This document shows positions 1-12,909 of a stretch of DNA of 64,000 nt, piece after piece; the first letter of the stretch is position 1, and every line of letters starts with the position of its first letter. Source of the stretch: a bacterium. Its GTDB lineage: Bacteria; UBA10199; DSSB01. The position numbers and the translations under genes were made by a program. Under the pieces are notes generated by a model, which saw only the letters and a program-made list of their open reading frames with translations, was not told the DNA's origin and searched no databases. Location: assembly GCA_048499175.1 (NCBI GenBank), contig JASOAK010000004.1:36373-100372 (forward strand), read 5' to 3'.

Positions 1-747
1 GCCCATCTCCTTGGCCAGAAAGGTGTGCTCGTAATAGGCCGAATTGTAGATGCCCGGCGTCAGCACGACGATCTCGCACTCTCCCTTGCCTCGCGGCGAG
101 ACGTAGCGCAGGGCTTCGAGGAGGATCGAGGGGTAGTGCTCGACGCGCCGGACGCGATACTTGGAAAAGAATTCCGACAAAATATGGCGCTCGAGGATAC
201 GGTTCTCGATCATGTAGGAGACGCCGCTGGGGGTGCGCAGGTTGTCCTCCAGGACGAGGTAGCGTCCCCGTTCGTCCCGAACCAGGTCGATCCCCGCGAC
301 ATGGGTGTAGATGTCGTGGGGCGGGACGATGTCCAAGACCTCCCGCCGAAAATCCCGACCCTGGTAGACGAGGGCCGGCGGGATCACGCCGTCTTTGAGG
401 ACGCGCTGCCGGTGGTAAATGTCCTTCAGGAACAGATTGAGCGCGCGGACGCGTTGCTTCAGGCCGCTCTCCAGGCCCCGCCACTCGGCGGCGGGAATGA
501 GGCGGGGAATGACGTCGAAGGGCAAGACCCGTTCGATGCCCTTGTCTTCCTCGCTGTAGACCGTGAAGGTGACTCCCTCGGTGATCAAAGCCAAGTGCGC
601 CTCGCGGCTTTTTTGGGCGAGGCCCGCCTGCCCGATGCGGCGGATATGCTCCCACAACAGCCGGTAGTGCTCGCGCGGCTCGAAATTGTCCTTGTAAAAC
701 TCGTGGAAAGAGCTTTCCGCGAGGGATTGTTCGGAGTTGGGCAACAT
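1..747 (-). CDS. Circularly permuted type-2 ATP-grasp protein (N-terminal ~249 aa; gene runs off the window start)
   Basis: Minus-strand translation from the ATG at 747-745 gives MLPNSEQSLAESSFHEFYKDNFEPREHYRLLWEHIRRIGQAG...VLPFDVIPRLIPAAEW...DIYTHVAGIDLVRDERGRYLVLEDNLRTP. This is typical of the COG2308 family. An AAGGA ribosome-binding site lies upstream. The plus-strand ORF 25-801 is the mirror artefact. Confidence 0.6.
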   Translation of the reverse strand, partial: MLPNSEQSLAESSFHEFYKDNFEPREHYRLLWEHIRRIGQAGLAQKSREAHLALITEGVTFTVYSEEDKGIERVLPFDVIPRLIPAAEWRGLESGLKQRVRALNLFLKDIYHRQRVLKDGVIPPALVYQGRDFRREVLDIVPPHDIYTHVAGIDLVRDERGRYLVLEDNLRTPSGVSYMIENRILERHILSEFFSKYRVRRVEHYPSILLEALRYVSPRGKGECEIVVLTPGIYNSAYYEHTFLAKEMG

Positions 748-939
748 GGTCCTTACCTACAGGCGGCCGAAAGCACCCACTCGCTGCACGCCGGCCGGTG
801 AACGACCGGATTTTCAGGCTAGCACCGCGACGCTCGGGCTATCAACCCTAAAGCGCATAATAAAGTACGCAATCGGGCCCTTAGGCTTGACGATAATCCC
901 CCAACACCGTTACAGAATCGCCGCTCACGAGGGAATCCA

Positions 940-2304
940 ATGTCGGGGAATATCGCCAAGGCCCTGGGCCTTTTTTTCGTACTATCGCTCCACGCCTGCA
1001 GCGGAGGTACCGCAAGCCCTCCGGAGAACCCGGCGCCGCCGGCACAACCCAGCTTTACCTACATCGCCCTGGGCGACAGCCTGGCCGCCGGGGTGCAAGA
1101 CGGCACCACCAACGAGCACACCCAGCCGCACAGCTACGCGGCGATCCTCGCCAAGCAGCTGGCCAAGGCCTACGGCGGCACGCTGACCATGCCCCTGCTC
1201 GCGGTCGACGGGCCGCGCAAAAACCCCGACAAGGTCCCCACCCTCCTCGGCATCTCCGGCGAGGACTCCGGAAGCCTCTATGAGACCAAGGCCACGGGCG
1301 AGCCGCTGACCTCCGCAAGCAGCCTCCACGACCGCACTTTAGCGCCGATCGCCTTTTCCGAATACCGCGGCGAAGCCACCAGCCAGCTCGACGCCGCCCT
1401 CTGGCTGGCCGAGAAGTGGAAGGACGCGGATCCCGCCACGCCCAAGATCATGACCCTTTGGCTCAACAACGACGTGCTGGGCTCGGTGGTCCAGATCGGC
1501 AACGAGAATTACACCGCCGCGGGCGTCGAGGCGGCGATGACGCCTCCGGAGGAATTCCGGGCGAATATGGATTTTGTCTTGGGGAAATTGGCCGCGACCG
1601 GCGCCGAGGTCTTCGTCGGCAACATCCCCGACATCACGCAGATCGCCTACCTGGTCTCGGGCGAGACGGTGAGACGCTGGACGAGCCTGTCCGTCCCCGC
1701 CAACCGCCTGCCGGAGGGCGCCCGGATGAGCCTGCCCGCCGCCTTGCGCATCTATACGGACTTCCTCGCGGGCCGCGAGTGGGAGGCGACGCTGGCGGAG
1801 CACCTGGTGGACAGCTCGGTCTTGACCGCCGAGGAGGCGGCGCCGATCCAGGCCCGCATCGCCGCCTTGAACCAAATTCTCGCCGAGCTGACGGCGAAAC
1901 ACTCCCTGCATCTCGTCGACCTGAACGCTTCCCTGCGAGCCCCGCAGACCGTCGAGGGCACGACCTATACCGCCGAGTGGGGCGCGGGCGGGTTCTTCTG
2001 CCTGGACGGCGTGCATTTCTCGCACAGCGGACACGCCCATACGGCGAATCTCTTTATCCGCGCGATCAACCAGGCCCTCGGCGCCGCGGTACCCGAAATC
2101 GAGGTCTCGCAGGTGCGCCTCGACGACCCCTACGTCGACGCCGACGGCGACGGATTCCCGCGCGGGCCGAGCTACGAGCCCGTCCGGCCCGTCGTGCAAC
2201 TGCTCTTTCAATTTCGCGACGCGGACGACACGGATCCCGGGGTGGGGATTGTCGGGACGCCGGAGACCATTCAGGAAATGAAGGCGCTGGCGATCGCCCC
2301 TTGA
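940..2304 (+). CDS. Secreted lipoprotein, SGNH/GDSL-family hydrolase
   Basis: Signal peptide with lipobox (LSLHAC). GDSL block IALGDSLAAG. C-terminal DGVHFS block (SGNH catalytic His). A GAGGGA ribosome-binding site precedes the ATG. Confidence 0.75.
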   Translation: MSGNIAKALGLFFVLSLHACSGGTASPPENPAPPAQPSFTYIALGDSLAAGVQDGTTNEHTQPHSYAAILAKQLAKAYGGTLTMPLLAVDGPRKNPDKVPTLLGISGEDSGSLYETKATGEPLTSASSLHDRTLAPIAFSEYRGEATSQLDAALWLAEKWKDADPATPKIMTLWLNNDVLGSVVQIGNENYTAAGVEAAMTPPEEFRANMDFVLGKLAATGAEVFVGNIPDITQIAYLVSGETVRRWTSLSVPANRLPEGARMSLPAALRIYTDFLAGREWEATLAEHLVDSSVLTAEEAAPIQARIAALNQILAELTAKHSLHLVDLNASLRAPQTVEGTTYTAEWGAGGFFCLDGVHFSHSGHAHTANLFIRAINQALGAAVPEIEVSQVRLDDPYVDADGDGFPRGPSYEPVRPVVQLLFQFRDADDTDPGVGIVGTPETIQEMKALAIAP

Positions 2305-2337
2305 CTCCCCCGCGGGGATGGGCGAGTTTTCGCGGCA

Positions 2338-4209
2338 TTGATCACGCTCCCCTTTTCCAAAAAGCCGACCCACCGCCAGCGCCACCGCGCCGCGCGCGAA
2401 ACCAAGCGCCGCGACCGCGCCAAGCGCTTCAAGAGCCTGCGCGACCAGATCTATTGGGCGCGTTTCCTGGGCTACGTCGGACGCCATAAAAAGACGATCC
2501 TAGGCATCTCCGCCCTGATCGTCCTCGGCGGCGTCCTCGGCCTCGCCCTGCCCTTCCTGTCGCGGTTCGTCCTGGATTACATCGTCCCCAAACGGGACTA
2601 CGCCCTGCTCAACTGGGTGATCCTCGGCGGACTCGGGATCTACCTGCTCCACGCCGTCCTCCGCTATTACGAGCAACGCTTGGTCACGACCTTCTCGATG
2701 GACCTGGTCACCGAGATCCGCCGCGACCTGTTCCGCTACCAGATGCGGCTGCCGCTCACCTATTTCGAAAACAACGCCGCCGGGAAGCTGGTCTCGAAGC
2801 TCACCTATAGCGTCATGATGATCAAGGTCTTGGTCGAGACCTTCGCCTACGTCTGCCTGCGCGAGTCGGTGAACATCCTTCTGCTCACGGTCGCCGCCAC
2901 GATCATCGACTGGCGGCTGACGCTGATCCTCTCCGCGCTCGCGCCCTTCGTCGTCCTCTACATCCGCCGCCTCAACCGTTACATGGCCGAGGTGGCCTCC
3001 CAGCTGCAGACCAAGAACGACCAAATTCTGAAGATCCTCGACCGCGCCTACCACTCCGCCAAGCTCTTCCAGATCTTCGGCGGCGGGCTGCGCGAAGGCG
3101 ACCGCTTCGAGGAGGTCTTGAATCAGGACAAGAAATTCCGAATCGAACGCACGATGGTCTATGCCGGCAACGCCATCCTGATCGGCTTCCTCGCCTCCGC
3201 CGTGCTGCTGGCGTCGCTGTGGTACGGCGGCCGACAAATTATCCAGGGGCAGCTGAGCCACGGCGAGGTCCTCGCCTATATGATCTGCCTGGGGCTGCTG
3301 TTTCGACCGCTCTCTCAGTTCGTCCGCGCGACGGCCTACCTGCAGGCGGGCCTGATCGGCATCCGGACCGTCTTTTCGATCTTCGAGAACACGACGCCCA
3401 TTGCCGAGCCGGAACACCCCGTCGTGCCCGAGCGCCGCGAGGGCAAGGTCGAATTCCGGAGCGTCTGGTTCCAATACGCCCGCGGAATCGGCGGGCTGCG
3501 CAACGTCAGCTTCCGCGCCGAGCCGGGACAGAAGGTCTTGATCGTCGGCCAGAGCGGCGCCGGCAAGAGCACCTTGCTGAATTTATTGATGCGCCTCTAC
3601 GACGGCAACCGCGGGAGCATCCTGATCGACGGGGTGAACATCCGCAAGATGCGTCTGGACGACCTGCGCGCCTATTTCAGCGTGGTGGCGCAGGACCAGT
3701 TGCACGTCGAGGATACCATCCTGGGCAACGTCTTCTTCGGCGAAATGGGGAGCAAGGGCCCCGACATGGAGGCCCAGCTCGAGAAGGCCCTCGACCTGGG
3801 GAGGCAGATGGAGCTCAACCGCTTCATCGCCTCGCTGGAGCGAAAATTCGGGCAGAAGGTCGGCGCGGAGGGCTTGGGCTATTCGCGCGGCGAGCTGCAG
3901 AAGCTCGCGCTGATGCGCGCCGCCGCCAAGGACGCGCCCATCGTCCTGATGGACGAGCCGACCGCCTCGCTGGACCACCGCTCGGAGCGCGGCGTCCTCA
4001 AGATCATCGCCGAGCATTTTCGAAAGAAGACGGTGCTGGTCATCTCGCACCGCCCGCTGCCGCAGCTGCGTCCCGACTGGGTCGTGGTCTTGAAGAAGGG
4101 CGCGGTGGAGGCCCAGGGCCGGCACGAGGACTTGATCGCCCGCTCGCCTTACTACCGCGAGCTGCTCGCGCAGGGCCGAGAGGAGCCTGTTCCCGCCCCC
4201 GCCCTCTGA
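2338..4209 (+). CDS. ABC transporter, fused permease/ATP-binding exporter (MsbA/type-I exporter-like)
   Basis: N-terminal six-TM permease domain. Walker A GQSGAGKSTLLNLL, ABC signature YSRGELQKL, Walker B ILMDEP. The TTG start at 2338 is uncertain. Confidence 0.85.
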   Translation: MITLPFSKKPTHRQRHRAARETKRRDRAKRFKSLRDQIYWARFLGYVGRHKKTILGISALIVLGGVLGLALPFLSRFVLDYIVPKRDYALLNWVILGGLGIYLLHAVLRYYEQRLVTTFSMDLVTEIRRDLFRYQMRLPLTYFENNAAGKLVSKLTYSVMMIKVLVETFAYVCLRESVNILLLTVAATIIDWRLTLILSALAPFVVLYIRRLNRYMAEVASQLQTKNDQILKILDRAYHSAKLFQIFGGGLREGDRFEEVLNQDKKFRIERTMVYAGNAILIGFLASAVLLASLWYGGRQIIQGQLSHGEVLAYMICLGLLFRPLSQFVRATAYLQAGLIGIRTVFSIFENTTPIAEPEHPVVPERREGKVEFRSVWFQYARGIGGLRNVSFRAEPGQKVLIVGQSGAGKSTLLNLLMRLYDGNRGSILIDGVNIRKMRLDDLRAYFSVVAQDQLHVEDTILGNVFFGEMGSKGPDMEAQLEKALDLGRQMELNRFIASLERKFGQKVGAEGLGYSRGELQKLALMRAAAKDAPIVLMDEPTASLDHRSERGVLKIIAEHFRKKTVLVISHRPLPQLRPDWVVVLKKGAVEAQGRHEDLIARSPYYRELLAQGREEPVPAPAL

Positions 4210-4228
4210 GCAAACGCCGGCCCCTTCC

Positions 4229-5785
4229 TCAGTCGAACTTGATCTCCCCGTTCAGCGCCTGCCGCACGTAGCGCAGCTTACCCTTCAAGTTGGCCCATTT
4301 TCGCGCGAGGCCCTCTTTCTTCTCCCGCCCCTGAAGGAACATCTCGAAGTTCGTGCCGAAGTAGCGCCGCCAGCCCCGGTAGGGCGCCAGGCTGCGGCGG
4401 CGCAGGATGCGGTGGTAGGCTCCGGTCAGACTCTTGTAGCCCAGCTCGCGGAACCAGGCCTCGGGGATCAGCCGCCGGTTGCGCGGCGAGGGCCGGCGCA
4501 GGATGGCGAGGCGGATGCGGTCTTTGATGAAGGCGTCCATCCGGCGGAAGCTCAAGTCGTCGTCGACCACCGGGAAGGCGCGCACCCAGGGCAACTGCTT
4601 CAGGCCCAGGGTCGCGGCGAGGCCGGTGTTGATGTCGAGGATGATTTTCTTCAGCAGGGCCCGGCGCTCTTCGTCGGTCTTGTTGGGGTAGTCGCGGTAG
4701 CGGTCGACGACCAGCTGCTCGTAGGCCCACTGCTTGAAGCGCCCCATCGCGACGCCGCCGATGTGGATCTTCCCTTCGGCGAAGCGATAACCCAGGTATT
4801 CGAAGGCCTCGCCCGGCGCCTTGCGCAAAGTTTTATGCGGCGAGGAGCGGAGCGCATGTTCCGCCAAGACCTCGGCGATGCGGCGGCTCCCGGCCTCGAG
4901 CCGCGCCGGATCCGGATCCAGCAGCAGGATATCGTCGCCGTAGCGCAGGTAATGATGGTCGCCGCGGAACATCTCGCGGTCGAGCCGCCAGAGGTAGAAG
5001 TTGGCGAAAACGGTCGACAGGCTCGAGCCCGCCGGGATGCCGCGGACGGGCGAGACGAGATGCCCGTCCCAAAACTTCCGCTGGTGGACGAAGTGCCGCA
5101 CCAGGCCCCGGACCTCGGGCTCGTCGGGCAGGACCTCGCGCAGCATGTCCAGCAGGCGACCTTGGTCGATGTTGTCGAAGTAATCCGCGATGTCGGTCTT
5201 GTAGACGAAGAGCCTGCCCGCGTGCGCCTGCAGCAGCTTGCGGACGCGGCGCGCGGCGGCGATGGTGCCGTAGGAGCGCCCGTTGCGGTAAGAAAATAGG
5301 TTCGGATAGTAGAGCCGCTCGAAGCGCTCGACCAAGGGCAGGGCCATCGCCTTCTGCACGACCTTGTCGCGCAGGGCCACCAGATAGATCTCGCGAAACT
5401 TCCCCGGCGTGTCCTTCGGCACCTTGCGCAGGATCTGCGGGTAAAAAGGCCGGTCTCCGGCAAGCAGAAAATCGCGGCAGGCCTTAAGCTGCGCCTCCAG
5501 GTCCCGATCGAAGTCGCGCAGGTCCACACCGTCGATCCCGGAGGCGAACTTCTTATAATGTTGGAGATAGGGGTCGTAGTGCTTTTCGCGGATCAGGCGG
5601 TAGGCCTCGCGAAGGTTTTCGGAAGAGACGATCTGAGCGAAGAGCTTACCCAAGGAGACCTTAAAAGGTGGTGAGGCCGGGATAGAAAAGCTTTTCCCCA
5701 TCCCGGCCTTGGCCTGCGAACGCCGCTGGAACGTCGCCATCCTGCAAGCGACAAATTGGTTGGTTGGGTGGTTATTTATTACCAC
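4229..5785 (-). CDS. Reverse transcriptase, group-II-intron/retron-like RT domain, free-standing
   Basis: RT domain 0-2 (SGIDGVDLRDF, FYPQILRKVPKD, REIYLVALRDKVVQ). Block 4/5 RGIPAGSSLSTVFANFYL. Catalytic YGDD (LRYGDDILLL). Block 7 PHKTLRKAPGEAFEYLGYRF. A ~190-aa thumb/maturase-like C-terminus follows. The annotated start is a GTG; an ATG at 5701 (MGKSFSIP) has an AAGG ribosome-binding site and may be the true start. Confidence 0.85.
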   Translation of the reverse strand: MVINNHPTNQFVACRMATFQRRSQAKAGMGKSFSIPASPPFKVSLGKLFAQIVSSENLREAYRLIREKHYDPYLQHYKKFASGIDGVDLRDFDRDLEAQLKACRDFLLAGDRPFYPQILRKVPKDTPGKFREIYLVALRDKVVQKAMALPLVERFERLYYPNLFSYRNGRSYGTIAAARRVRKLLQAHAGRLFVYKTDIADYFDNIDQGRLLDMLREVLPDEPEVRGLVRHFVHQRKFWDGHLVSPVRGIPAGSSLSTVFANFYLWRLDREMFRGDHHYLRYGDDILLLDPDPARLEAGSRRIAEVLAEHALRSSPHKTLRKAPGEAFEYLGYRFAEGKIHIGGVAMGRFKQWAYEQLVVDRYRDYPNKTDEERRALLKKIILDINTGLAATLGLKQLPWVRAFPVVDDDLSFRRMDAFIKDRIRLAILRRPSPRNRRLIPEAWFRELGYKSLTGAYHRILRRRSLAPYRGWRRYFGTNFEMFLQGREKKEGLARKWANLKGKLRYVRQALNGEIKFD

Positions 5786-5960
5786 CCCACCACTCCCCCT
5801 AAGCCTTGCGGCGAAGGGGATGTGTAAGGACGACTCCGCCCCATGTCCGCGGGTGGGGCGAACCCCGATGCGAAGCCGCCTGGGTCATTGGACATCGCGG
5901 GCGGGCCAAAACCACCTCTTTCTCGCCCGCGTGTTCCAGCCTGCGTCTTTTCAACTTAGA
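5786..5960 (-). ncRNA. Candidate structured leader/ncRNA upstream of the RT (several stem-loops incl. GGGGUUCGCCCC UUCG-tetraloop hairpin)
   Basis: Minus-strand hairpins: gggtggt-N9-accaccc (5770-5795), GGGGTTCGCCCC (5855-5866), ATGTCC...GGACAT long-range pair, CGCGGGC...GCCCGCG. A possible -10 TATGAT lies near 5968-5973 (minus-strand sense). Confidence 0.3.
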
Positions 5961-6219
5961 TCATATGATGGCCGAAAGGAAAGCTATTTCCGGCACATAC
6001 CAAAACCCACCTAGCGCTTACGGTAGGTGGGTCGCGTCGGCCTGAAAAGCCAGGCGGAAGCTTTTGGCAGCCCCGCTATCCATCCTGGATGGACCGGAGG
6101 CTTTGCGTCCTCCGATTGCTCGGAGTTTGCCTTTTTCCGCCGGACGTCCGGACTCCCGTCAACGGCGTCCGACATTGAAAAGTGTAACGCCGCCCCCGTC
6201 TTGTGACAAGACGCATTTC

Positions 6220-6258
6220 GGGGTTTTTCCGAGACCGCGCGGGGCTTGGAAAAACCCC
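6220..6258. promoter_or_regulatory. Perfect 11-bp inverted repeat GGGGTTTTTCC-N17-GGAAAAACCCC, 26 bp upstream of the ABC-F start
   Basis: Read directly from the sequence. A further 17-nt palindrome CGTCTTGTGACAAGACG lies at 6197-6213. Confidence 0.5.
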
Positions 6259-6283
6259 AAGGACATGCGAGAGATCCCCCGCC

Positions 6284-8107
<1,824 letters not shown>

Positions 8108-8234
8108 GCGTATTGGCAGATCCCTGTAAATATAACTTGGCCCTACCATTCGAATCACCTTAAAAAAAACGAAGTCCCCCCGAAAAACTTACGATTTGCC
8201 CGGCACCAAGGGTGATGCTACGACTTCTCTATCC

Positions 8235-9245
8235 ATGAACGCCGCGCCCCTCAGCTTTCGCCGCTTCGCCGCCGTCCTCTCCGGCCTGGCGCTCCTGCTC
8301 GCCGCGGCGGTCGCCCTAAGCCTCGCCTTCGGCGGCGGCCGGCTCGACTTGGCGGCGGCCTGGAGCGATCCCGCGAGCCCCGAGCACGACATCCTCTTCT
8401 ACTCGCGCCTGCCCAGGATCCTGCTCGGCGTCATCGTCGGCTTCGCCCTCTCCAGCGGCGGCGTCGCCTTCCAGAGCCTGCTGCGCAACCCGATGGCCGA
8501 CCCCTACATCCTGGGCGTCTCCGGCGGCGCCGCGCTCGGCAGCGTGGTCGCGGTCTCGCTCGGCTTGGCCTTCACCTGGGTCAGCTCGGTCGCCTTTGTC
8601 TCCGCCCTGGCTTCGCTGCTGCTGATCTACTGGATCGCGCAGACCAAGGGCCGCCTGCCCGTCTACACGCTGTTGCTCACCGGCGTCATCTTCAACGCCT
8701 TCAGCTTCGCGCTCATCATGTTCATCAACTCGCTGGTCAGCTTCGAGCAGGCGCACCGCATTTGGTACCTCATGGTCGGCTCGCTCGAGGCCGAGAGCTA
8801 CGGGAAGATCGCGGTGACGGGAGCCTTCGTCCTGGCCGGATTCCTGCTGCTCTTCCTGCACGCGGGGAAGATGAACTTGATGGCCCTGGGCGACTCGAGC
8901 GCCCAATATCTGGGCCTCGACGTCGAGAAATTCCGCCGCCACATCTTCTTCGCCGCATCGTTGATGATCGGCGCGACGGTCAGCCTCTCGGGCCTGATCG
9001 GCTTCGTCGGCCTCTTCATCCCGCACATGGTGCGGCTCAGGCTCGGTTCCGACCACCGCCTGTTGCTGCCGGCCTCGGCCCTGTTCGGCGCCGCCTTCCT
9101 GGTCTTGGCCGACCTGGCCGCGCGCACGGTCTTAAGCGGCTCCGATTACCAGACGCAGATCCCCGTCGGCGTCCTCACCGCCCTGATCGGCGGCCCCTTC
9201 TTCGTTTACCTCGTGAAAAAACCCTCGAACCGAGGTGCCTGGTGA
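8235..9245 (+). CDS. FecCD-family iron-chelate/cobalamin ABC transporter permease
   Basis: Polytopic membrane protein with typical BtuC/FhuB signatures (RLPRILLGVIVGFALSSGGVAFQSLLRNPMADPYILGVSGGAALG). Confidence 0.85.
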   Translation: MNAAPLSFRRFAAVLSGLALLLAAAVALSLAFGGGRLDLAAAWSDPASPEHDILFYSRLPRILLGVIVGFALSSGGVAFQSLLRNPMADPYILGVSGGAALGSVVAVSLGLAFTWVSSVAFVSALASLLLIYWIAQTKGRLPVYTLLLTGVIFNAFSFALIMFINSLVSFEQAHRIWYLMVGSLEAESYGKIAVTGAFVLAGFLLLFLHAGKMNLMALGDSSAQYLGLDVEKFRRHIFFAASLMIGATVSLSGLIGFVGLFIPHMVRLRLGSDHRLLLPASALFGAAFLVLADLAARTVLSGSDYQTQIPVGVLTALIGGPFFVYLVKKPSNRGAW

Positions 9246-10024
9246 CGACGGTCTACACGCTGGAAAACGTCTCCCTCTCCTATGACTCCCTGCCGGTGCT
9301 GCAGGACCTGGGCTTCGCGATCCGCGAGCGCGAGTTCGTCGGCGTCCTCGGGCCGAACGGTTGCGGCAAGACCACGCTGCTCAACCTCCTAGCCGGCGTC
9401 TTGAGGCCCACGGCGGGAGAGATCCGGCTCTTCGAGCGCGAGCTCCGCGACTACTCCCGCCGCGAGGCCGCGCGGATCGTCTCGGTACTGCCCCAGGAGA
9501 CCTTCATCGAATTCCCCTTCACCGCCTTGGAGGTCGTCCTGATGGGGCGCGCGCCCTACCTGGGCCGCTTCCAATGGGAGAGCCCCCGCGACCTCGAGAT
9601 CGCGCGCGAGGCGATGCGGCTCACCGACTGCCTGGGCTTCGCCGATCGCGATATCCGCCTGCTCTCCGGCGGCGAGCGCGAGCGCGTCCTGCTGGCCCGG
9701 GCCCTCGCCCAGGAGCCCAAGGTCCTACTGCTGGACGAGCCGACGACCCACCTGGACTTGCAGCACCAAGTCGAGATCTACAGCCTCCTGAAGCGCCTGC
9801 ACGCCGAGCGCGACTTGACCCTCGTCGTGGTCCTCCACGACCTGAGCTTCGCGGCCACGGCCTGCGGACGCCTACTGCTTTTTGCGGAAGGCCGACTCAA
9901 GGCCGACGGAGAACCGGAAGCCGTGATGCGGCCCGAGATCCTGCGGGAGGTCTTCGGCACCGAGGTCTTGAGCGGCACCCATCCCGAAACCGGCAGGCCT
10001 TATTTTTTGCCCAAGCTGCCTTGA
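9242..10024 (+). CDS. Iron-chelate ABC transporter ATP-binding protein (FecE/BtuD-like)
   Basis: GTG start overlaps the permease stop (GTGA). Walker A GPNGCGKTT, signature LSGGERERV, Walker B LLLDEPT. Confidence 0.85.
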   Translation: MTTVYTLENVSLSYDSLPVLQDLGFAIREREFVGVLGPNGCGKTTLLNLLAGVLRPTAGEIRLFERELRDYSRREAARIVSVLPQETFIEFPFTALEVVLMGRAPYLGRFQWESPRDLEIAREAMRLTDCLGFADRDIRLLSGGERERVLLARALAQEPKVLLLDEPTTHLDLQHQVEIYSLLKRLHAERDLTLVVVLHDLSFAATACGRLLLFAEGRLKADGEPEAVMRPEILREVFGTEVLSGTHPETGRPYFLPKLP

Positions 10025-10074
10025 AATTTCGTCAAAGCATTGACGACCCCGGAATCTTTCTTTACTCTGAACCG

Positions 10075-10299
10075 GTGAAGACCAAAACCCTCGGCCATAG
10101 GATCGATCCGCCAAATCCGGAGCAAGAGGCTCGCATCCTGCAAAAGACCCTCAATCGCCTGAGAGGCCGCGCGCTCGTGCCCGGCGGAGTTTACCGCTTC
10201 AATACCTTCGAGGAAGCCGACCAATGGATGATCCGTCAAATCGCACATACTCACGCGCTCCGGAGCTCGAAGACCTCCTCAAACTCTGCCAAGCCTTGA
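10075..10299 (+). CDS. Hypothetical small protein (75 aa) overlapping the start of the nucleotidyltransferase gene
   Basis: In-frame GTG ORF with a protein-like tail (QKTLNRLRGRALVPGGVYRFNTFEEADQWMIRQIAHT). No recognised motif. Confidence 0.25.
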   Translation: MKTKTLGHRIDPPNPEQEARILQKTLNRLRGRALVPGGVYRFNTFEEADQWMIRQIAHTHALRSSKTSSNSAKP

Positions 10300-10712
10300 A
10301 TCAGTCCGGCGTGCGTTACCTGCTGATCGGAGGTTTTGCCGTCATCCTTCACGGTTTCGTCCGCGGCACGAAAGATATTGACCTGTTGTTGGACGCCTCC
10401 CCGGAAAATATTCAAAAGCTCAAGCAAGCCATGTCCTTCTTGCCGGACAATGCCGTCGCCCTGATCCAAGACGATGAAATCGAAAAATATGCCGTCGTGC
10501 GGGTCGCCGACGAAATCGTCGTCGACCTGATGGCCAAGGCCTGCGGAATCGGCTATGAAGAGGCCGCAAAGGGCATGGAATGGAAAGAAATCGAAGGGGT
10601 AAGGATTCCGCTGGCCAGCAAGCCCTTGCTGATCCGAATGAAAGACACGATCCGCCCTTCGGACAAAATGGACGTCGACTATCTGCGTTGGCGGATACAA
10701 GAGGAAATGTGA
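10224..10712 (+). CDS. Nucleotidyltransferase-fold protein (MNT/AbiEii-like minimal NTase)
   Basis: YLLIGGFAVILHGFVRGTKDIDLLLD matches the hG[GS]...R.T.DID NTase core. Confidence 0.5.
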   Translation: MDDPSNRTYSRAPELEDLLKLCQALNQSGVRYLLIGGFAVILHGFVRGTKDIDLLLDASPENIQKLKQAMSFLPDNAVALIQDDEIEKYAVVRVADEIVVDLMAKACGIGYEEAAKGMEWKEIEGVRIPLASKPLLIRMKDTIRPSDKMDVDYLRWRIQEEM

Positions 10713-10715
10713 TCC

Positions 10716-11552
10716 ATGCGCCGACGCATCGCCCTCGCCGTGGCGGCCGCCGTTCTGTTACATGCCGCCCTTGCAATCTTCCTGGTTTGGCTTAGTGCTT
10801 TTCAGCAACACCGCGTCGCCACCTTGAGCGACGCCGGCGGGGTGGTGTGGTACAACCTGAATCCCGGCGGCGCGGGCAGCGGAGGCGCGGGCGGGCTGGG
10901 CGCGCCGCAGGCCGCGGATCCCCAGGCCGCAACCCCGAAATCCGAAGGAATGGCGCCGACGCCATCCAAGCCGGATAGAAAATCCGACGAGGCCTTGACG
11001 GAGCGGCCCGCCAAGGCGATCCCCGCGAAGCCGCCGCGTCTCAAGATCGTCCCCAAGCCGCCGATCGCCGAGGAAGGCGCGGAACGCCCTGCCGAAAAGG
11101 CCTCCCTCCCTCCCGGCTTGCCGGGACCCGGCGAAGGGGATTCCTCCGGCGCTAAGACCGGCCCCGGCGGCGGGGAGGGAGCGGGCCTGGGCGGCGGAGA
11201 AGGCGCCGGCAGCGGCGGCGGGAAGGGTCCCGGCGGGGTCGGCGCGCCGGGCAGCGGCGGGTCGGGGAGCGGCGGCGAGGCCTCGACGATCCTGGCGCGC
11301 ATCCGGCAGAAGATCGCGCGGGCCAAGCGCTACCCGCGCCAGGCGCGCTCCGAGGAGTTGGAAGGAGTCGCGGGCCTGCAATTCGAAATCAATGCCGACG
11401 GCTCGGTCGCCTACGTCAACCTCACCAGCAGCAGCGGGCACCGCGTCCTGGACGAGGAGGCCGTAGCGACGGTGCGGCGCGCCGCGCCTTTTCCCTATTA
11501 TGCGGGGCCGATCCGGTTTAGCCTGCGCTTCAGCTTGAAGGACAACCCGTAG
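10716..11552 (+). CDS. tonB: TonB-family energy transducer (N-terminal TM helix, Pro/Gly-rich linker, TonB C-terminal domain)
   Basis: C-terminal domain KRYPRQARSEELEGVAGLQFEINADGSV. The Gly/Pro-rich spacer is low-complexity. Its stop codon TAG lies inside the REP element. Confidence 0.75.
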   Translation: MRRRIALAVAAAVLLHAALAIFLVWLSAFQQHRVATLSDAGGVVWYNLNPGGAGSGGAGGLGAPQAADPQAATPKSEGMAPTPSKPDRKSDEALTERPAKAIPAKPPRLKIVPKPPIAEEGAERPAEKASLPPGLPGPGEGDSSGAKTGPGGGEGAGLGGGEGAGSGGGKGPGGVGAPGSGGSGSGGEASTILARIRQKIARAKRYPRQARSEELEGVAGLQFEINADGSVAYVNLTSSSGHRVLDEEAVATVRRAAPFPYYAGPIRFSLRFSLKDNP

Positions 11553-11686
11553 GGGCGAACCTTGTGTTCGCCCCCGGTGGAAAATAAGCCGGATTTGGCT
11601 TTCGAGCGGCGTCCGTAGGGGCCGGCAAAGAAGCCAACCTTGCGAAATCGCTGCCATCGCCGGGCGAACACAAGGTTCGCCCCTAC
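11549..11686. repeat. REP/MITE-like palindromic element with 25-bp terminal inverted repeats GTAGGGGCGAACCTTGTGTTCGCCC / GGGCGAACACAAGGTTCGCCCCTAC
   Basis: The two inverted repeats are perfect. The same terminal repeats recur at 31386-31487. Confidence 0.8.
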
Positions 11687-11727
11687 GAATGCGGTGTTGC
11701 CTTTTTTACCAATTTAGAACTTGAAAC

Positions 11728-12909
11728 ATGATCCGTTTTCCAAAACCTCTCGAAGACTTCCTCCTCCCCTTTCTCAAGCGCGAGTTCTACCGCGGCACGC
11801 GCCGAGCCTCCTTCGCCGAGCGGCCCTTCGGCGACGAGGACCTGCGCTTCTTCGCCAAAGGTGTTTCGCAGCTCTCCGAGCTCTTCACCTCCGACCGCGC
11901 CAACCTGCAGGCCGGCTACCTGAACCAGCCGCAGCTCCGCGCGGCCTATCTACTTTATTTTCTGCCGATCAATTACGCCAAGACCCGCTTCGTGCTGGAG
12001 AAAATCCCCGAAACATTCTGGCGGCGCGAAAAATTCCGCGTCCTCGACCTGGGCTGCGGGCCCGGCTCGGCCTCGCTGGCCTTCGCGAGGATGCTGGCCG
12101 AAAAGAATCCGAAGGCCGAGCTCGAGCTCGTCCTGGTCGAACAAAACGCCAATATCCTGAAGGACGCGCAGCGCCTCCTCGAGGCCGCCGCGCCCGCGCT
12201 CAAGCTCCAGGTCCGCGCCTTCCCGCTCTGGCTGCACGGCTTCCGCTTCCAGGGAAAATACGACTTGATCCTGATGAGCCACGTCCTGAACGAGCTGGTG
12301 CAGCTCTCGGCCCAGGAGCGCGCCGAGTGGCTCTTTCCGCGGCTCGACGAGCACCTCGCGGCGGACGGTATCGCCGCCCTCCTCGAGCCGGCGCTGCGAC
12401 GCCCGACCCGCGAGCTGATGGCGCTGCGCGACCACCTCATCGAATCGGGCGAGCTGGGCGTGCTGGCGCCCTGTCTGCACAACGAGGTCTGCCCCATGCT
12501 CGCCGCGACCCGCGGCGACTGGTGCCACTTCTACGTGGATTGGGAGGAGCCAGAATACCTGCGGGAGCTCGACCGCCTGGTGAAGAACGACAACCGCTTC
12601 CTCAAGGTCGCCTACCTCCTGCTCGGCCGAAAGGAATCTTGGCAGGAGGCCCAACCCCAGGACCGCGAGCTGTTCCGCGTGGTAAGCAACCGCATGCAGA
12701 CGCGCGGCAAGACCGAGGTCGTGCTCTGCGGCGCCCCCGGCCGGCTCAGCCTCTATCGCCTCGACCGCGAACGGCGCGCGGAAAACCAGGACCTCGATCA
12801 AGTCCGCCGTGGCGACGTGCTGCGGCTGCAAGGTTGGAAGAGCAAGGGCTTCAAGGTGTCGTGGACCCTGCGTCTGGACCCCAAATGGACGGTGAAGAAA
12901 CTTCCCTAG
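11728..12909 (+). CDS. Class-I SAM-dependent methyltransferase, Rsm22-like
   Basis: SAM motif VLDLGCGPGSAS. C-terminal Cys cluster CLHNEVCPM...DWCHF as found in the Rsm22/COG5459 family. Confidence 0.5.
   Translation: MIRFPKPLEDFLLPFLKREFYRGTRRASFAERPFGDEDLRFFAKGVSQLSELFTSDRANLQAGYLNQPQLRAAYLLYFLPINYAKTRFVLEKIPETFWRREKFRVLDLGCGPGSASLAFARMLAEKNPKAELELVLVEQNANILKDAQRLLEAAAPALKLQVRAFPLWLHGFRFQGKYDLILMSHVLNELVQLSAQERAEWLFPRLDEHLAADGIAALLEPALRRPTRELMALRDHLIESGELGVLAPCLHNEVCPMLAATRGDWCHFYVDWEEPEYLRELDRLVKNDNRFLKVAYLLLGRKESWQEAQPQDRELFRVVSNRMQTRGKTEVVLCGAPGRLSLYRLDRERRAENQDLDQVRRGDVLRLQGWKSKGFKVSWTLRLDPKWTVKKLP

Follow-up and report, generated by a model that had tools for sequence, protein, structure and literature searches.

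A chromosomal reverse transcriptase and its pseudoknotted upstream RNA look like a domesticated pair, with a putative c-di-GMP riboswitch in one subclade

The window, a 64,000-nucleotide stretch of bacterial DNA (contig JASOAK010000004.1, positions 36,373 to 100,372), carries on its minus strand a free-standing reverse transcriptase (RT) gene preceded by a structured noncoding RNA (ncRNA), and this module has the appearance of a domesticated pair of enzyme and RNA, more than that of a retron or of a mobile gene for phage defence. The explanation that we favour, and to which we give somewhat more belief than doubt, is that a chromosomal, apparently vertically inherited RT works with a dedicated pseudoknotted ncRNA to make RNA-templated cDNA, under the control of a cyclic dinucleotide in the subclade of the window. 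An earlier note, made from the DNA letters of the window, had recognized here the layout of an RT that depends on a structured RNA; what stood of this was a free-standing enzyme, outside any intron or DGR, with an upstream RNA as in the class 2 UG/DRT systems, and what fell was the retron assignment and the defence role.

The RT coding sequence occupies positions 4229..5653 of the minus strand and encodes 474 aa from a TTG start, an assignment based on the starts of homologues, tblastn and the Pfam RVT_1 match. The frame is open up to 5785 (ORF 4229..5785, minus strand), but the extension beyond 5653 showed no conservation, and in close relatives it lay in another frame or contained stops. All 39 homologues (470-476 aa) begin with MGxLF, which corresponds to the TTG at 5653 in the window, and tblastn placed residue 1 at the same position. 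The protein is thus shorter than the 490-518 aa given before, and the non-coding region, earlier put at about 500 bp, becomes the 630 nt of 5654-6283, a composite stretch. The AlphaFold2 model (pLDDT 82) consisted of an RT and a thumb/D-like tail; residues 1-43, counted on the long ORF, were disordered in it. RVT_1 was found with an E value of 1.6e-19, and the Pfam search of the protein returned no other domain. The motifs SGIDGV, RGIPAGSSLS, YGDD and KT..FEYLGYRF were all present, as first described, and the catalytic Asp residues were invariant in the alignment (37/37 homologues). Since the X of YXDD is G, C, A or I within the family, YGDD is not diagnostic, although it had been called atypical for retron and group II RTs. 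The dN/dS values of 0.05-0.13 indicate that the family is under strong purifying selection.

The closest solved fold for the RT model was the GsI-IIC group II intron RT, with a target TM-score of 0.79-0.80 and a match that spans fingers, palm, thumb and D-like domain; G2L4, DRT9 and DRT2 were among the other structural matches. In agreement, group II intron RTs gave the best match in a PDB profile search (E about 5e-41), and the GIDG motif in RT0 is common to them and the window RT. In the same search, retron RTs were matched at merely E about 1e-9 to 1e-11. Despite the group-II-like fold, assignment to the group II RT/maturases was rejected, as the cutoff of TIGR04416 (group_II_RT_mat) is 300 bits and the window RT reached 125.9. 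Rfam searches with E <= 1 detected no Intron_gpII or group-II-D1D4 element, and none reached the gathering threshold in the whole window; hence, the window RT differs from the group II introns in lacking an intron RNA, and the original view that it is not inside such an intron was upheld. The adjacent ABC gene is convergent and, as had been stated, intact to its end at 4209; as its stop and that of the RT are just 19 nt apart, there is no room for 3' intron domains. The retron assignment was rejected with 52.9 bits for NCBIfam retron_St85_RT against a cutoff of 235. A DGR was rejected too, in line with the earlier reading: the direct-repeat search of positions 1-12000 found no TR/VR-type repeats, and the direct repeats detected there came solely from Walker-motif likeness between ABC genes and from a Gly-rich tandem repeat.

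The earlier note had proposed profile searches against the known RT families to place the enzyme. The best PADLOC profiles were RT_UG26 and RT_UG17 (DRT10), followed by UG4 and Drt9; the profiles of the DRT families stayed under their cutoffs (Drt2 with 54.6 bits against 390), and the G2L4 match in the PDB search (E 3.5e-24) was weaker than that of the intron RTs. Membership in UG26 was rejected, because the window RT scored 169 bits (E 3e-50) against 487 bits (E 1e-146) for the bona fide UG26 protein P0090, with which it shares 26% identity over 360 aa. On these profile scores, the family has no name, and its nearest named group is UG26 (class 2 UG/Abi), of which it is not a member. Like UG26, the window RT is stand-alone with no extra known domain, and the two align collinearly into the C-terminal region as far as the GY(K/Q)SL..AY motif, but the window RT continues for about 55 aa more in a basic C-terminal segment. 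We are not aware of an ncRNA reported for UG26. The neighbours also differ: the conserved one of the window RT is an ABC exporter, while a Vsr-like endonuclease adjoins 9/35 UG26 members (Mestre et al. 2022, PMC9226505).

The upstream ncRNA spans about 216 nt (5725..5940, minus strand), as delimited by covariation and by matches to a covariance model, and is predicted to consist of eight helices including a pseudoknot. The closing helix P1 pairs 5940-5933 with 5732-5725 and encloses P2 (5931-5896; the CGCGGGC/GCCCGCG hairpin), the pseudoknot helix P3 (5895-5890 with 5848-5843; ATGTCC/GGACAT), P4 (5879-5870 with 5839-5830), P5 (5866-5855; GGGGUUCGCCCC), P6 (5819-5796), P7 (5791-5762; gggtggt/accaccc) and P8 (5752-5733), all on the minus strand. 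The hairpins quoted in the earlier note therefore all exist as P2, P3, P5 and P7, and covary across homologues; the three palindromes or inverted repeats reported further upstream are also present in the sequence. Structure prediction of the minus-strand region bore out the highly structured leader, with a fold of -146.6 kcal/mol (z = -5.97 vs shuffles). Between P7 and P8 lies the G-free stretch CCAACCAACCAAUUU (5767-5753, minus strand). A hypervariable module, formed by P7 and the P7-P8 linker, sits inside the conserved core of the RNA. The RNA 3' tail and the RT 5' UTR (5654..5724, minus strand) fold with -34.6 kcal/mol (z = -4.2) and contain a 16-bp hairpin (5709-5674, minus strand) and the segment CCACCUUU (5671-5664, minus strand); a weak SD (AAGG) and then the TTG codon come next. 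The segment CCACCUUU is complementary to the P2 loop AGAGGUGG (5919-5912), and compensatory changes were read by eye in L001, L005 and both L006 copies (L numbers denote the loci of relatives).

In the ncRNA alignment, 94.8% of the cells were paired and 29/38 pairs showed double changes (range 92-95%, 25-29 pairs); none of 500 shuffles was as good, and slid controls gave 31-48%. Five to six helices covaried, the pseudoknot among them, and RNAalifold independently recovered P1, P2, P4 and P8. The covariance model R1, which covers the 5' core of the ncRNA only, found a match ahead of each RT whose upstream flank is long enough; these matches include three copies outside its training set, the divergent L001 paralogue and the L025 copy among them. 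Across the family the RNA measures about 220-360 nt, and its nucleotide identity among relatives is at least that of the RT coding sequence. In searches of the window and its relatives, this RNA matched no Rfam family, and its architecture of closing helix, pseudoknot and eight helices matched no Rfam model. Two RT-RNA modules, diverged from each other, lie on one contig in L001, and L006 carries two RNAs with different variable regions. One of these is an intact, covarying orphan copy with no ORF behind it; downstream of it stand a hairpin, a U7 terminator and, beyond these, a promoter-like site, and its loop-tail pairing is kept though nothing is translated there. Such a free-standing RNA gene with its own terminator indicates that the RNA is a partner, not merely an mRNA leader. 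Collectively, covariation and model matches show the ncRNA to be a genuine, conserved structure that accompanies the RT copies having enough upstream flank.

The MsbA-like ABC exporter (2338..4209, plus strand), convergent with the RT, has a membrane domain and an ATPase (Pfam ABC_membrane and ABC_tran); its best NCBIfam match was MsbA_lipidA, with 337 bits, under the cutoff of that model. No other neighbour of the RT is conserved; the exporter was found beside it in 14/14 distinct loci extending far enough. The orientation was convergent in 13/14, among them L002, where about 1 kb lies between the genes; in L025 the exporter is upstream and divergent. The claim that no partner effector gene is present is therefore doubtful. 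The more similar an exporter is to that of the window, the more similar is its RT, and both genes diverge in step with the same low dN/dS. From this adjacency, a role connected with the cell envelope or with export seems more probable than one in phage defence; the linkage could also be inherited gene order without function.

Further upstream is a separable module, overlooked in the earlier note, in which a riboswitch and a terminator account for about a quarter of what had been called the leader. The segment 6062..6140 (minus strand) is a full-length match to RF03167 (c-di-GMP-I-GGC), the best Rfam model, with 66.7 bits vs a gathering score of 59 and an E value of 7.7e-15, and is predicted to be a c-di-GMP-I-type (GEMM-I) aptamer. 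The type is given by the model score and the ligand is putative: the GGC-variant consensus has G in GACGC[G/A]AAG, where the window has A. The window motifs GGCAAAC, GACGCAAAGCC and AGCGGGG presumably resemble the canonical Vc2 aptamer, though the GGC-variant model scores best. Among relatives, the aptamer was found in L003 (66.7 bits), L017 (69.7 bits), and L001 and L004 (47.4 bits, with a long insertion); the majority of the RT family is without it. The expression platform would be a terminator-like hairpin (5999..6033, minus strand), ACCCACCUA..UAGGUGGGU followed by UUUGGU, with a fold of -23 kcal/mol. With a loop of more than 8 nt, it was passed over by a consensus terminator scan; its stem is conserved in the alignment of L001 and L004 with a different loop. 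Inspection of the riboswitch-terminator region revealed no convincing antiterminator. A sigma-70-like promoter, TTGTCA-17-TACACT (6181..6209, minus strand), which overlaps the palindrome CGTCTTGTCACAAGACG, would drive the riboswitch transcript. This was the sole promoter-like site in 4100-6400 (0.2 expected by chance), and hexamers and spacing are both kept in L003 and L017. The next features on the same strand past the aptamer and the hairpin are the ncRNA and then the RT. In L003, an insertion breaks this link: the riboswitch lies 1.8 kb from the RNA and RT, and the stretch between them includes an opposite-strand gene; together with the riboswitch-less majority, this indicates that riboswitch control of the RT is not obligatory. 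The element resembles the known GEMM-I riboswitches (clan CL00126; RF01051/RF03167) in its full-length match and terminator-type platform, but differs in its cargo, an RT-ncRNA module. No report of a c-di-GMP riboswitch tied to an RT or an RT-ncRNA module was found in the searchable literature.

For the mechanism we draw on DRT2, DRT9 and DRT10 (UG2, UG28 and UG17), which likewise have a structured ncRNA that directly precedes the RT gene in the same orientation and co-varies with the enzyme. In class 2 UG RTs, the upstream ncRNA is the template, and the template loops lie 3' of a stable stem-loop with short A-B-A' repeats (PMC12632851, PMC9226505). By analogy, the window RT may bind the upstream ncRNA as a ribonucleoprotein and copy a segment of it into DNA. 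It speaks against this that, in sequence and in fold, the solved structures nearest to the RT belong to group II intron RTs and not to DRTs. In the window clade, the best template candidate would be the G-free CCAACCAACCAAUUU between the stable hairpin P7 and P8, which resembles the DRT10 template: it is short, single-stranded and repeat-bearing, and a stable stem-loop lies on its 5' side. We make this assignment tentatively, from its sequence and position: the G-free, repeat-like stretch is clear in just two clades, that of the window and that of L006-L008, and short or absent elsewhere, so it is kept as a candidate only. The RNA differs from that of DRT9 in having no poly-U template, and the module differs from DRT2 in that no frame was consistently open across members when whole-RNA concatemers were searched for an endless ORF; shorter sub-templates could still hold one. 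In the window subclade, transcription would begin at the sigma-70-like promoter, pass the aptamer and the terminator hairpin, and reach the RNA and RT, with read-through depending on a cyclic dinucleotide, whether in the on or the off sense. A second, riboswitch-independent promoter is likely to lie just upstream of the ncRNA.

Three other explanations were weighed against this domesticated pair. The module could be a DRT-type anti-phage defence, in which RT and ncRNA make cDNA on infection and the ABC exporter, or nothing, acts as effector, and we regard this as possible, if unlikely. The PADLOC ranking and the ncRNA-then-RT order shared with DRT2, DRT9 and DRT10 speak for it, membrane effectors (SLATT) pair with some UG systems, and the diverged modules of L001 and the variable RNAs of L006 resemble defence diversification. 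The context, unlike that of the three DRT systems, does not fit: no defence genes were found in about 14 loci, where the neighbours are transporters and metabolic genes, and no family member was found in the 2.9 million viral contigs of IMG/VR or the 72,556 plasmids of PLSDB. In addition, the family is rare, with 39 of 5.8 billion clusters (90% identity), the in-step divergence and equally low dN/dS of RT and exporter are at odds with a defence gene, and the convergent exporter shares no operon with the RT. The defence role once proposed is thus unsupported. An unlikely explanation is that the upstream RNA does no more than regulate in cis, as an autoregulatory RT-binding site or a translational control element, next to an RT that acts without an RNA template, for example in DNA repair like G2L4. 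The RNA does lie within the 5' UTR, where a strong terminator is not obvious ahead of the start codon, and its P2 loop is able to pair just 5' of the SD; moreover, G2L4 is among the closest solved structures and, like it, the window RT is chromosomal and free-standing; the window RT is also stably inherited. Nevertheless, G2L4 has been described without a dedicated RNA partner, which the window family has, and the orphan RNA of L006 remains intact and covarying, with its own terminator and its loop-tail pairing, where there is no ORF to regulate. A large pseudoknotted RNA with a hypervariable module in a conserved core is also more than expected for an operator site.

That the module is a retron, a decayed group II intron or another retroelement remnant is very improbable. 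The RT fold is of the group II intron type, and the end-joining helix P1 superficially resembles the a1/a2 repeats of retron ncRNAs. JGI calls several homologues 'retron-type RT', and NCBI calls one 'group II intron RT domain-containing'. Against such an origin are the retron and group II profile scores below their cutoffs, the lack of domain V/VI or D1-D4 in Rfam at E <= 1, and the spacing that leaves no place for 3' intron domains. The RT also has EYLGYRF after YXDD and not VTG, the motif found there in retron-type enzymes, and strong purifying selection at a fixed chromosomal position argues against a remnant.

A bolder version of the preferred explanation, which we consider distinctly unlikely, is an RT-RNA enzyme for housekeeping and not for defence, a prokaryotic counterpart of telomerase in its architecture, that would make short tandem-repeat DNA such as (TTGG)n in the genome of the window, switched by c-di-GMP, the second messenger of biofilm formation and motility, and coupled to the MsbA-like envelope exporter. 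Such a reading picks out the closing helix, the pseudoknot and a candidate C/A-rich template beside a boundary helix. By analogy only, telomerase also combines an RT with a dedicated RNA, here with G-free CCAA repeats by a stable helix, and is likewise stably and vertically inherited. On the other side, repeat synthesis is hypothetical for the window RT, the C/A-rich stretch is not conserved family-wide, and TERT is a more distant relative of the enzyme than the group II intron RTs are. A link between class 2 UG RTs and telomerase has been argued in the DRT10 paper (PMC12632851).

The RNA is a well-supported structured class of about 220-360 nt, pseudoknotted and new to Rfam, and the whole module is compact, held in the 2-kb fragment 4229-6209. 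To our knowledge, the characterised bacterial RT-ncRNA pairs, i.e., retrons, DRT2, DRT9 and DRT10, are all mobile, fast-evolving defence genes. The family described here has the same two-part design but behaves otherwise, with deep divergence in step with an MsbA-like exporter, strong purifying selection, and one clade wired to a riboswitch of the second-messenger type. If the RT copies its own RNA, this would be RNA-templated DNA synthesis serving cell physiology, and the first link known to us between c-di-GMP signalling and reverse transcription.

The reverse transcriptase (RT) open reading frame reported in the earlier note was confirmed on the minus strand at 4229..5785 (Pfam RVT_1, E 1.6e-19), and all the motifs listed there were found (SGIDGV, RGIPAGSSLS, YGDD and KT..FEYLGYRF). 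In the alignment, the motif A Asp and both Asp residues of YXDD were invariant across 37 homologues; at the level of sequence, the enzyme is catalytically intact and under selection. Its neighbours are on the plus strand: an ABC exporter of 623 aa, convergent with the RT and ending at 4209, and an ABC-F ATPase (Uup/EttA-like), divergent from it and starting near 6283. The protein had been given as 490-518 aa, with a leader of about 500 bp. The RT and its structured leader stood, but both lengths had to be revised, because each of the 39 homologues (40-96% identity, 470-476 aa) starts at MGxLF, which is the TTG at 5653 in the window, and the N-terminal extension is disordered in the AlphaFold model and not conserved, being in another frame or stopped in L003 and L017 (homologous loci 85-96% identical). 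The RT is therefore a 474-aa protein, and the non-coding region spans 5654-6283 (630 nt). Within it, ATGGGGAAAAGCTTTTC at 5700 (window 5660-5700) resembles the family start-codon region (ATGGGnAAGCTnTTC), which suggests that the start region was duplicated ancestrally in the window clade. The segment can also be read as a short uORF, interrupted by a stop in L003 and L017, and the first bases of ATGGGGAAAAGCTTTTC are the 5' arm of a 16-bp tail hairpin.

The stable hairpins claimed for the leader are all in the sequence, and the fold computed for the RNA strand of 5654-5950 has an energy of -146.6 kcal/mol, with z = -5.97 relative to dinucleotide shuffles. The RNA from 5940 to 5725 is conserved at every homologous RT. 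Inspection and alignment gave, from 5' to 3', the P1 5' strand GCUGGAAC, hairpin P2, the P3 5' strand, the junction AAGGCG, the P4 5' strand, hairpin P5, the P3 3' strand, GGG, the P4 3' strand, hairpin P6, the hypervariable long hairpin P7, a linker, hairpin P8 and the P1 3' strand GUUCCAGC, with P3 and P4 crossing as a pseudoknot. Covariation was analyzed on 13 diverse sequences, with 500 shuffles and slid partners as controls. Standard pairs filled 94.8% of the cells, versus 77.6% in the shuffles (none of the 500 was as high) and 31-48% with slid partners; both sides changed in 29 of the 38 pairs, and the covariation score was 0.544, compared with 0.06-0.14 when partners were slid. Every helix, the pseudoknot helix too, contained 4-8 covarying pairs. 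A second alignment of 15 sequences gave the same picture and added P5, and RNAalifold independently predicted P1, P2, P4 and P8. Among close relatives, nucleotide identity of the RNA core equalled or exceeded that of the CDS (96.9 vs 91.6%, 82.9 vs 75.2%, and 72.8 vs 73.3%). A segment immediately before the Shine-Dalgarno sequence, CCACCUUU (5671-5664), is the complement of the P2 loop, AGAGGUGG (5919-5912), in the window clade, and as read from the sequences the corresponding pairs appear to change in a compensatory way in L001, L005 and both RNA copies of L006. No match to this RNA was found in Rfam, even among those of the motifs RT-1 to RT-19 (reportedly from Weinberg et al. 2017) that Rfam contains.

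With R1, a covariance model built on the 5' core of the RNA, matches of 45-98 bits were obtained upstream of every RT with enough upstream flank, three of them outside the model-building set: L025, the RNA of the second L001 paralogue, and an additional, free-standing copy in L006. That second L001 RT is 50% identical and has its own RNA in front of it (62 bits). On contig L001 (JAIOPF010000003.1, from a MAG), two RT-RNA modules that have diverged from each other are separated by about 3.5 kb, 16-785 (-) and 3615-5683 (+), one with a riboswitch and an RT 76% identical to that of the window, the other about 50% identical and running off the contig end. Locus L006 has two tandem copies of the RNA at 1097-1715, which differ chiefly in P7 and the P7-P8 linker. 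The first copy (1097 to ~1310) is intact, differs from its neighbour in a compensatory way, and is followed by a hairpin and U7 terminator (1375-1408; -20.8 kcal/mol) and a promoter-like site, and only after these come the second copy and the RT. This free-standing RNA with its terminator indicates that the RT-linked RNA can be a gene of its own; as far as the loci can be compared, a dedicated pseudoknotted RNA goes with each RT copy and can stand alone.

Upstream of this RNA, on the RT strand, Rfam placed a c-di-GMP-I-type riboswitch aptamer at 6140-6062 (RF03167, c-di-GMP-I-GGC; full length, E 7.7e-15, 66.7 bits against a gathering score of 59), the sole match above gathering threshold within the 64-kb window. 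Its ligand is probably c-di-GMP, judging from the retained GGCAAAC, GCAAAGCC and AGCGGGG elements, which are like those of the canonical Vc2 aptamer; the best-scoring model is nevertheless the GGC variant. About 40 nt upstream of the aptamer lies TTGTCA-17-TACACT (6209-6181), the only sigma-70-like promoter in 4100-6400, where 0.2 were expected by chance, with hexamers and spacing kept in L003 and L017. On the 3' side, a hairpin (ACCCACCUA..UAGGUGGGU, then UUUGGU; 6033-5999, -23 kcal/mol), whose stem is kept and whose loop differs in L001 and L004, was read as a putative terminator-type expression platform. The window clade thus has the apparent order promoter, cyclic-dinucleotide-type aptamer, terminator, RNA and RT. 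A TATGAT box at 5965-5960, kept in L003, probably gives riboswitch-independent transcription too. The RT is preceded by the same riboswitch in L017 (69.7 bits), as well as in L001 and L004 (47.4 bits), where the element contains a long insertion. The RTs of these three loci are 75-85% identical to the window RT, and the Rfam search of the loci found the riboswitch absent from all those more distant. In L003, which has an RT of 96% identity as well as an intact aptamer and terminator, a 1.8-kb insertion (2033-3700) separates the latter two from the RT-proximal RNA. This split and the absence in distant loci make the riboswitch a separable, clade-specific addition to the RT module. The insertion encodes a CarH-like MerR/B12-binding regulator on the opposite (minus) strand and a fasciclin-domain protein, and riboswitch read-through would run antisense to the former. 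The claimed 11-bp inverted repeat (GGGGTTTTTCC..GGAAAAACCCC, 6212-6250) and palindromes, including the perfect CGTCTTGTCACAAGACG at 6195-6211, are also present. The repeat sits between divergent promoters in the ABC-F gene leader and is kept in L003, not in L017. As for CGTCTTGTCACAAGACG, it overlaps the riboswitch promoter at the -35 hexamer, and an operator role is doubtful because only its TTGTCA part is kept in relatives.

The PADLOC matches of the window RT were RT_UG26 (3e-50, 169 bits), RT_UG17 (1.6e-34), UG4, Cas1-fused RT and Drt9, and the best NCBIfam match was a group II RT/maturase at 126 bits, below the cutoff of 300. Against the PDB, the family profile hit group II intron RTs best (~5e-41), followed by Cas6-RT-Cas1, G2L4 (3.5e-24), DRT9, Drt2 and retron Ec86. 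The full-length GsI-IIC group II intron RT gave the best superposition with the AF2 model (pLDDT 82, pTM 0.75), at a target TM-score of 0.79-0.80 over 455 columns, followed by DRT9, G2L4, DGR RT and DRT2. A bona fide UG26 protein, P0090, scored 487 bits on RT_UG26 versus 169 for the window RT and is only 26% identical to it, yet collinear into the C-terminal domain; the window family has an extra basic C-terminal segment of about 55 aa. On these profiles and the predicted structure, the family is best described as an unnamed sister of UG26 with a group-II-intron-like fold. It fills only a few 50% clusters among 1.84 billion cluster representatives, and its next relatives are RTs of 410-470 aa and proteins of about 850 aa with two tandem RT domains. 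Four tandem proteins of the UG26-like superfamily (P0068, P0069, P0070 and P0072; ~800-860 aa) have halves each 27-29% identical to the window RT.

Gene order was compared in 14 distinct loci extending past the RT. An MsbA-like ABC exporter (582-631 aa) was convergent with the RT in 13, the two genes mostly overlapping at their 3' ends but lying about 1 kb apart in L002, and in L025 it was directly upstream and divergent. Exporter identity to the window copy tracked RT identity across loci (97 and 96%, 86 and 85%, 78 and 76%, 66 and 60%, 63 and 60%, 61 and 58%, 51 and 40%, respectively), and dN/dS lay at 0.05-0.13 in the RT gene and at 0.06-0.17 in the exporter gene. No family member was found in IMG/VR or PLSDB, and no defence genes flanked the RT in the loci examined. 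Together, these features mark the RT as a chromosomal gene with stable inheritance rather than a mobile defence cassette. Carriers were only 2 of 185,579 species-representative genomes, and the named sources are uncultured 'Deltaproteobacteria' MAGs, e.g., strain PRO3. Since the linkage survives the L025 rearrangement while all other neighbours vary, a functional partnership with the exporter is favoured over frozen synteny. In several distant clades, the gene immediately preceding the RNA, in the same orientation, encodes a member of a secreted/lipoprotein-like family of ~180-230 aa without a Pfam match (L020 4191-4736; L024 264-812; L019 3976-4668; L022 2175-2876). The window clade lacks this family, which may be a third component or reflect synteny alone. 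Elsewhere in the window, GGC-rich 24-nt tandem repeats (10860-11250, ~74% G+C) inside an ORF probably encode a Gly-rich repeat protein.

The earlier note had proposed a retron/defense-RT-like module, of which the RT with an upstream structured RNA held. The retron and intron-remnant readings failed their defining tests: the NCBIfam retron profiles, like Drt2 and Drt3a, left the window RT far below cutoff, and it is not an intron RT because no intron RNA was detected and only 19 nt follow its stop before the exporter gene. The absence of TR/VR repeats excludes a DGR. The relatedness, the arrangement of RNA and RT, and the paralogous modules of L001 and L006 make a DRT-like defence role possible, but neither genomic context nor evolutionary behaviour supports it. 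The orphan RNA gene of L006 contradicts the view that the upstream RNA is solely a cis-regulatory leader and points to a partner acting in trans. Bacterial RTs paired with a cognate ncRNA upstream are already known as a kind of system; what is new here, with no report found in the searchable literature, is the family to which the RT belongs, the class of RNA, the exporter as invariant neighbour, the slow evolution without mobility, and the c-di-GMP-type riboswitch before the RT module.

For this RT and its RNA, a candidate template is the G-free stretch CCAACCAACCAAUUU (5767-5753), 3' of hairpin P7, although this role is speculative. Its length differs between close relatives by CCAA units; the L006-L008 clade has comparable short repeats built of CAAA or AAC units, but in other clades the stretch is short. 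By analogy, RT and RNA would form an RNP, and the RT may copy part of its RNA, as modelled on class 2 UG systems (PMC9226505; PMC12632851). In the window clade, terminator read-through would depend on the aptamer ligand, which would hence set the dose of both RNA and RT.
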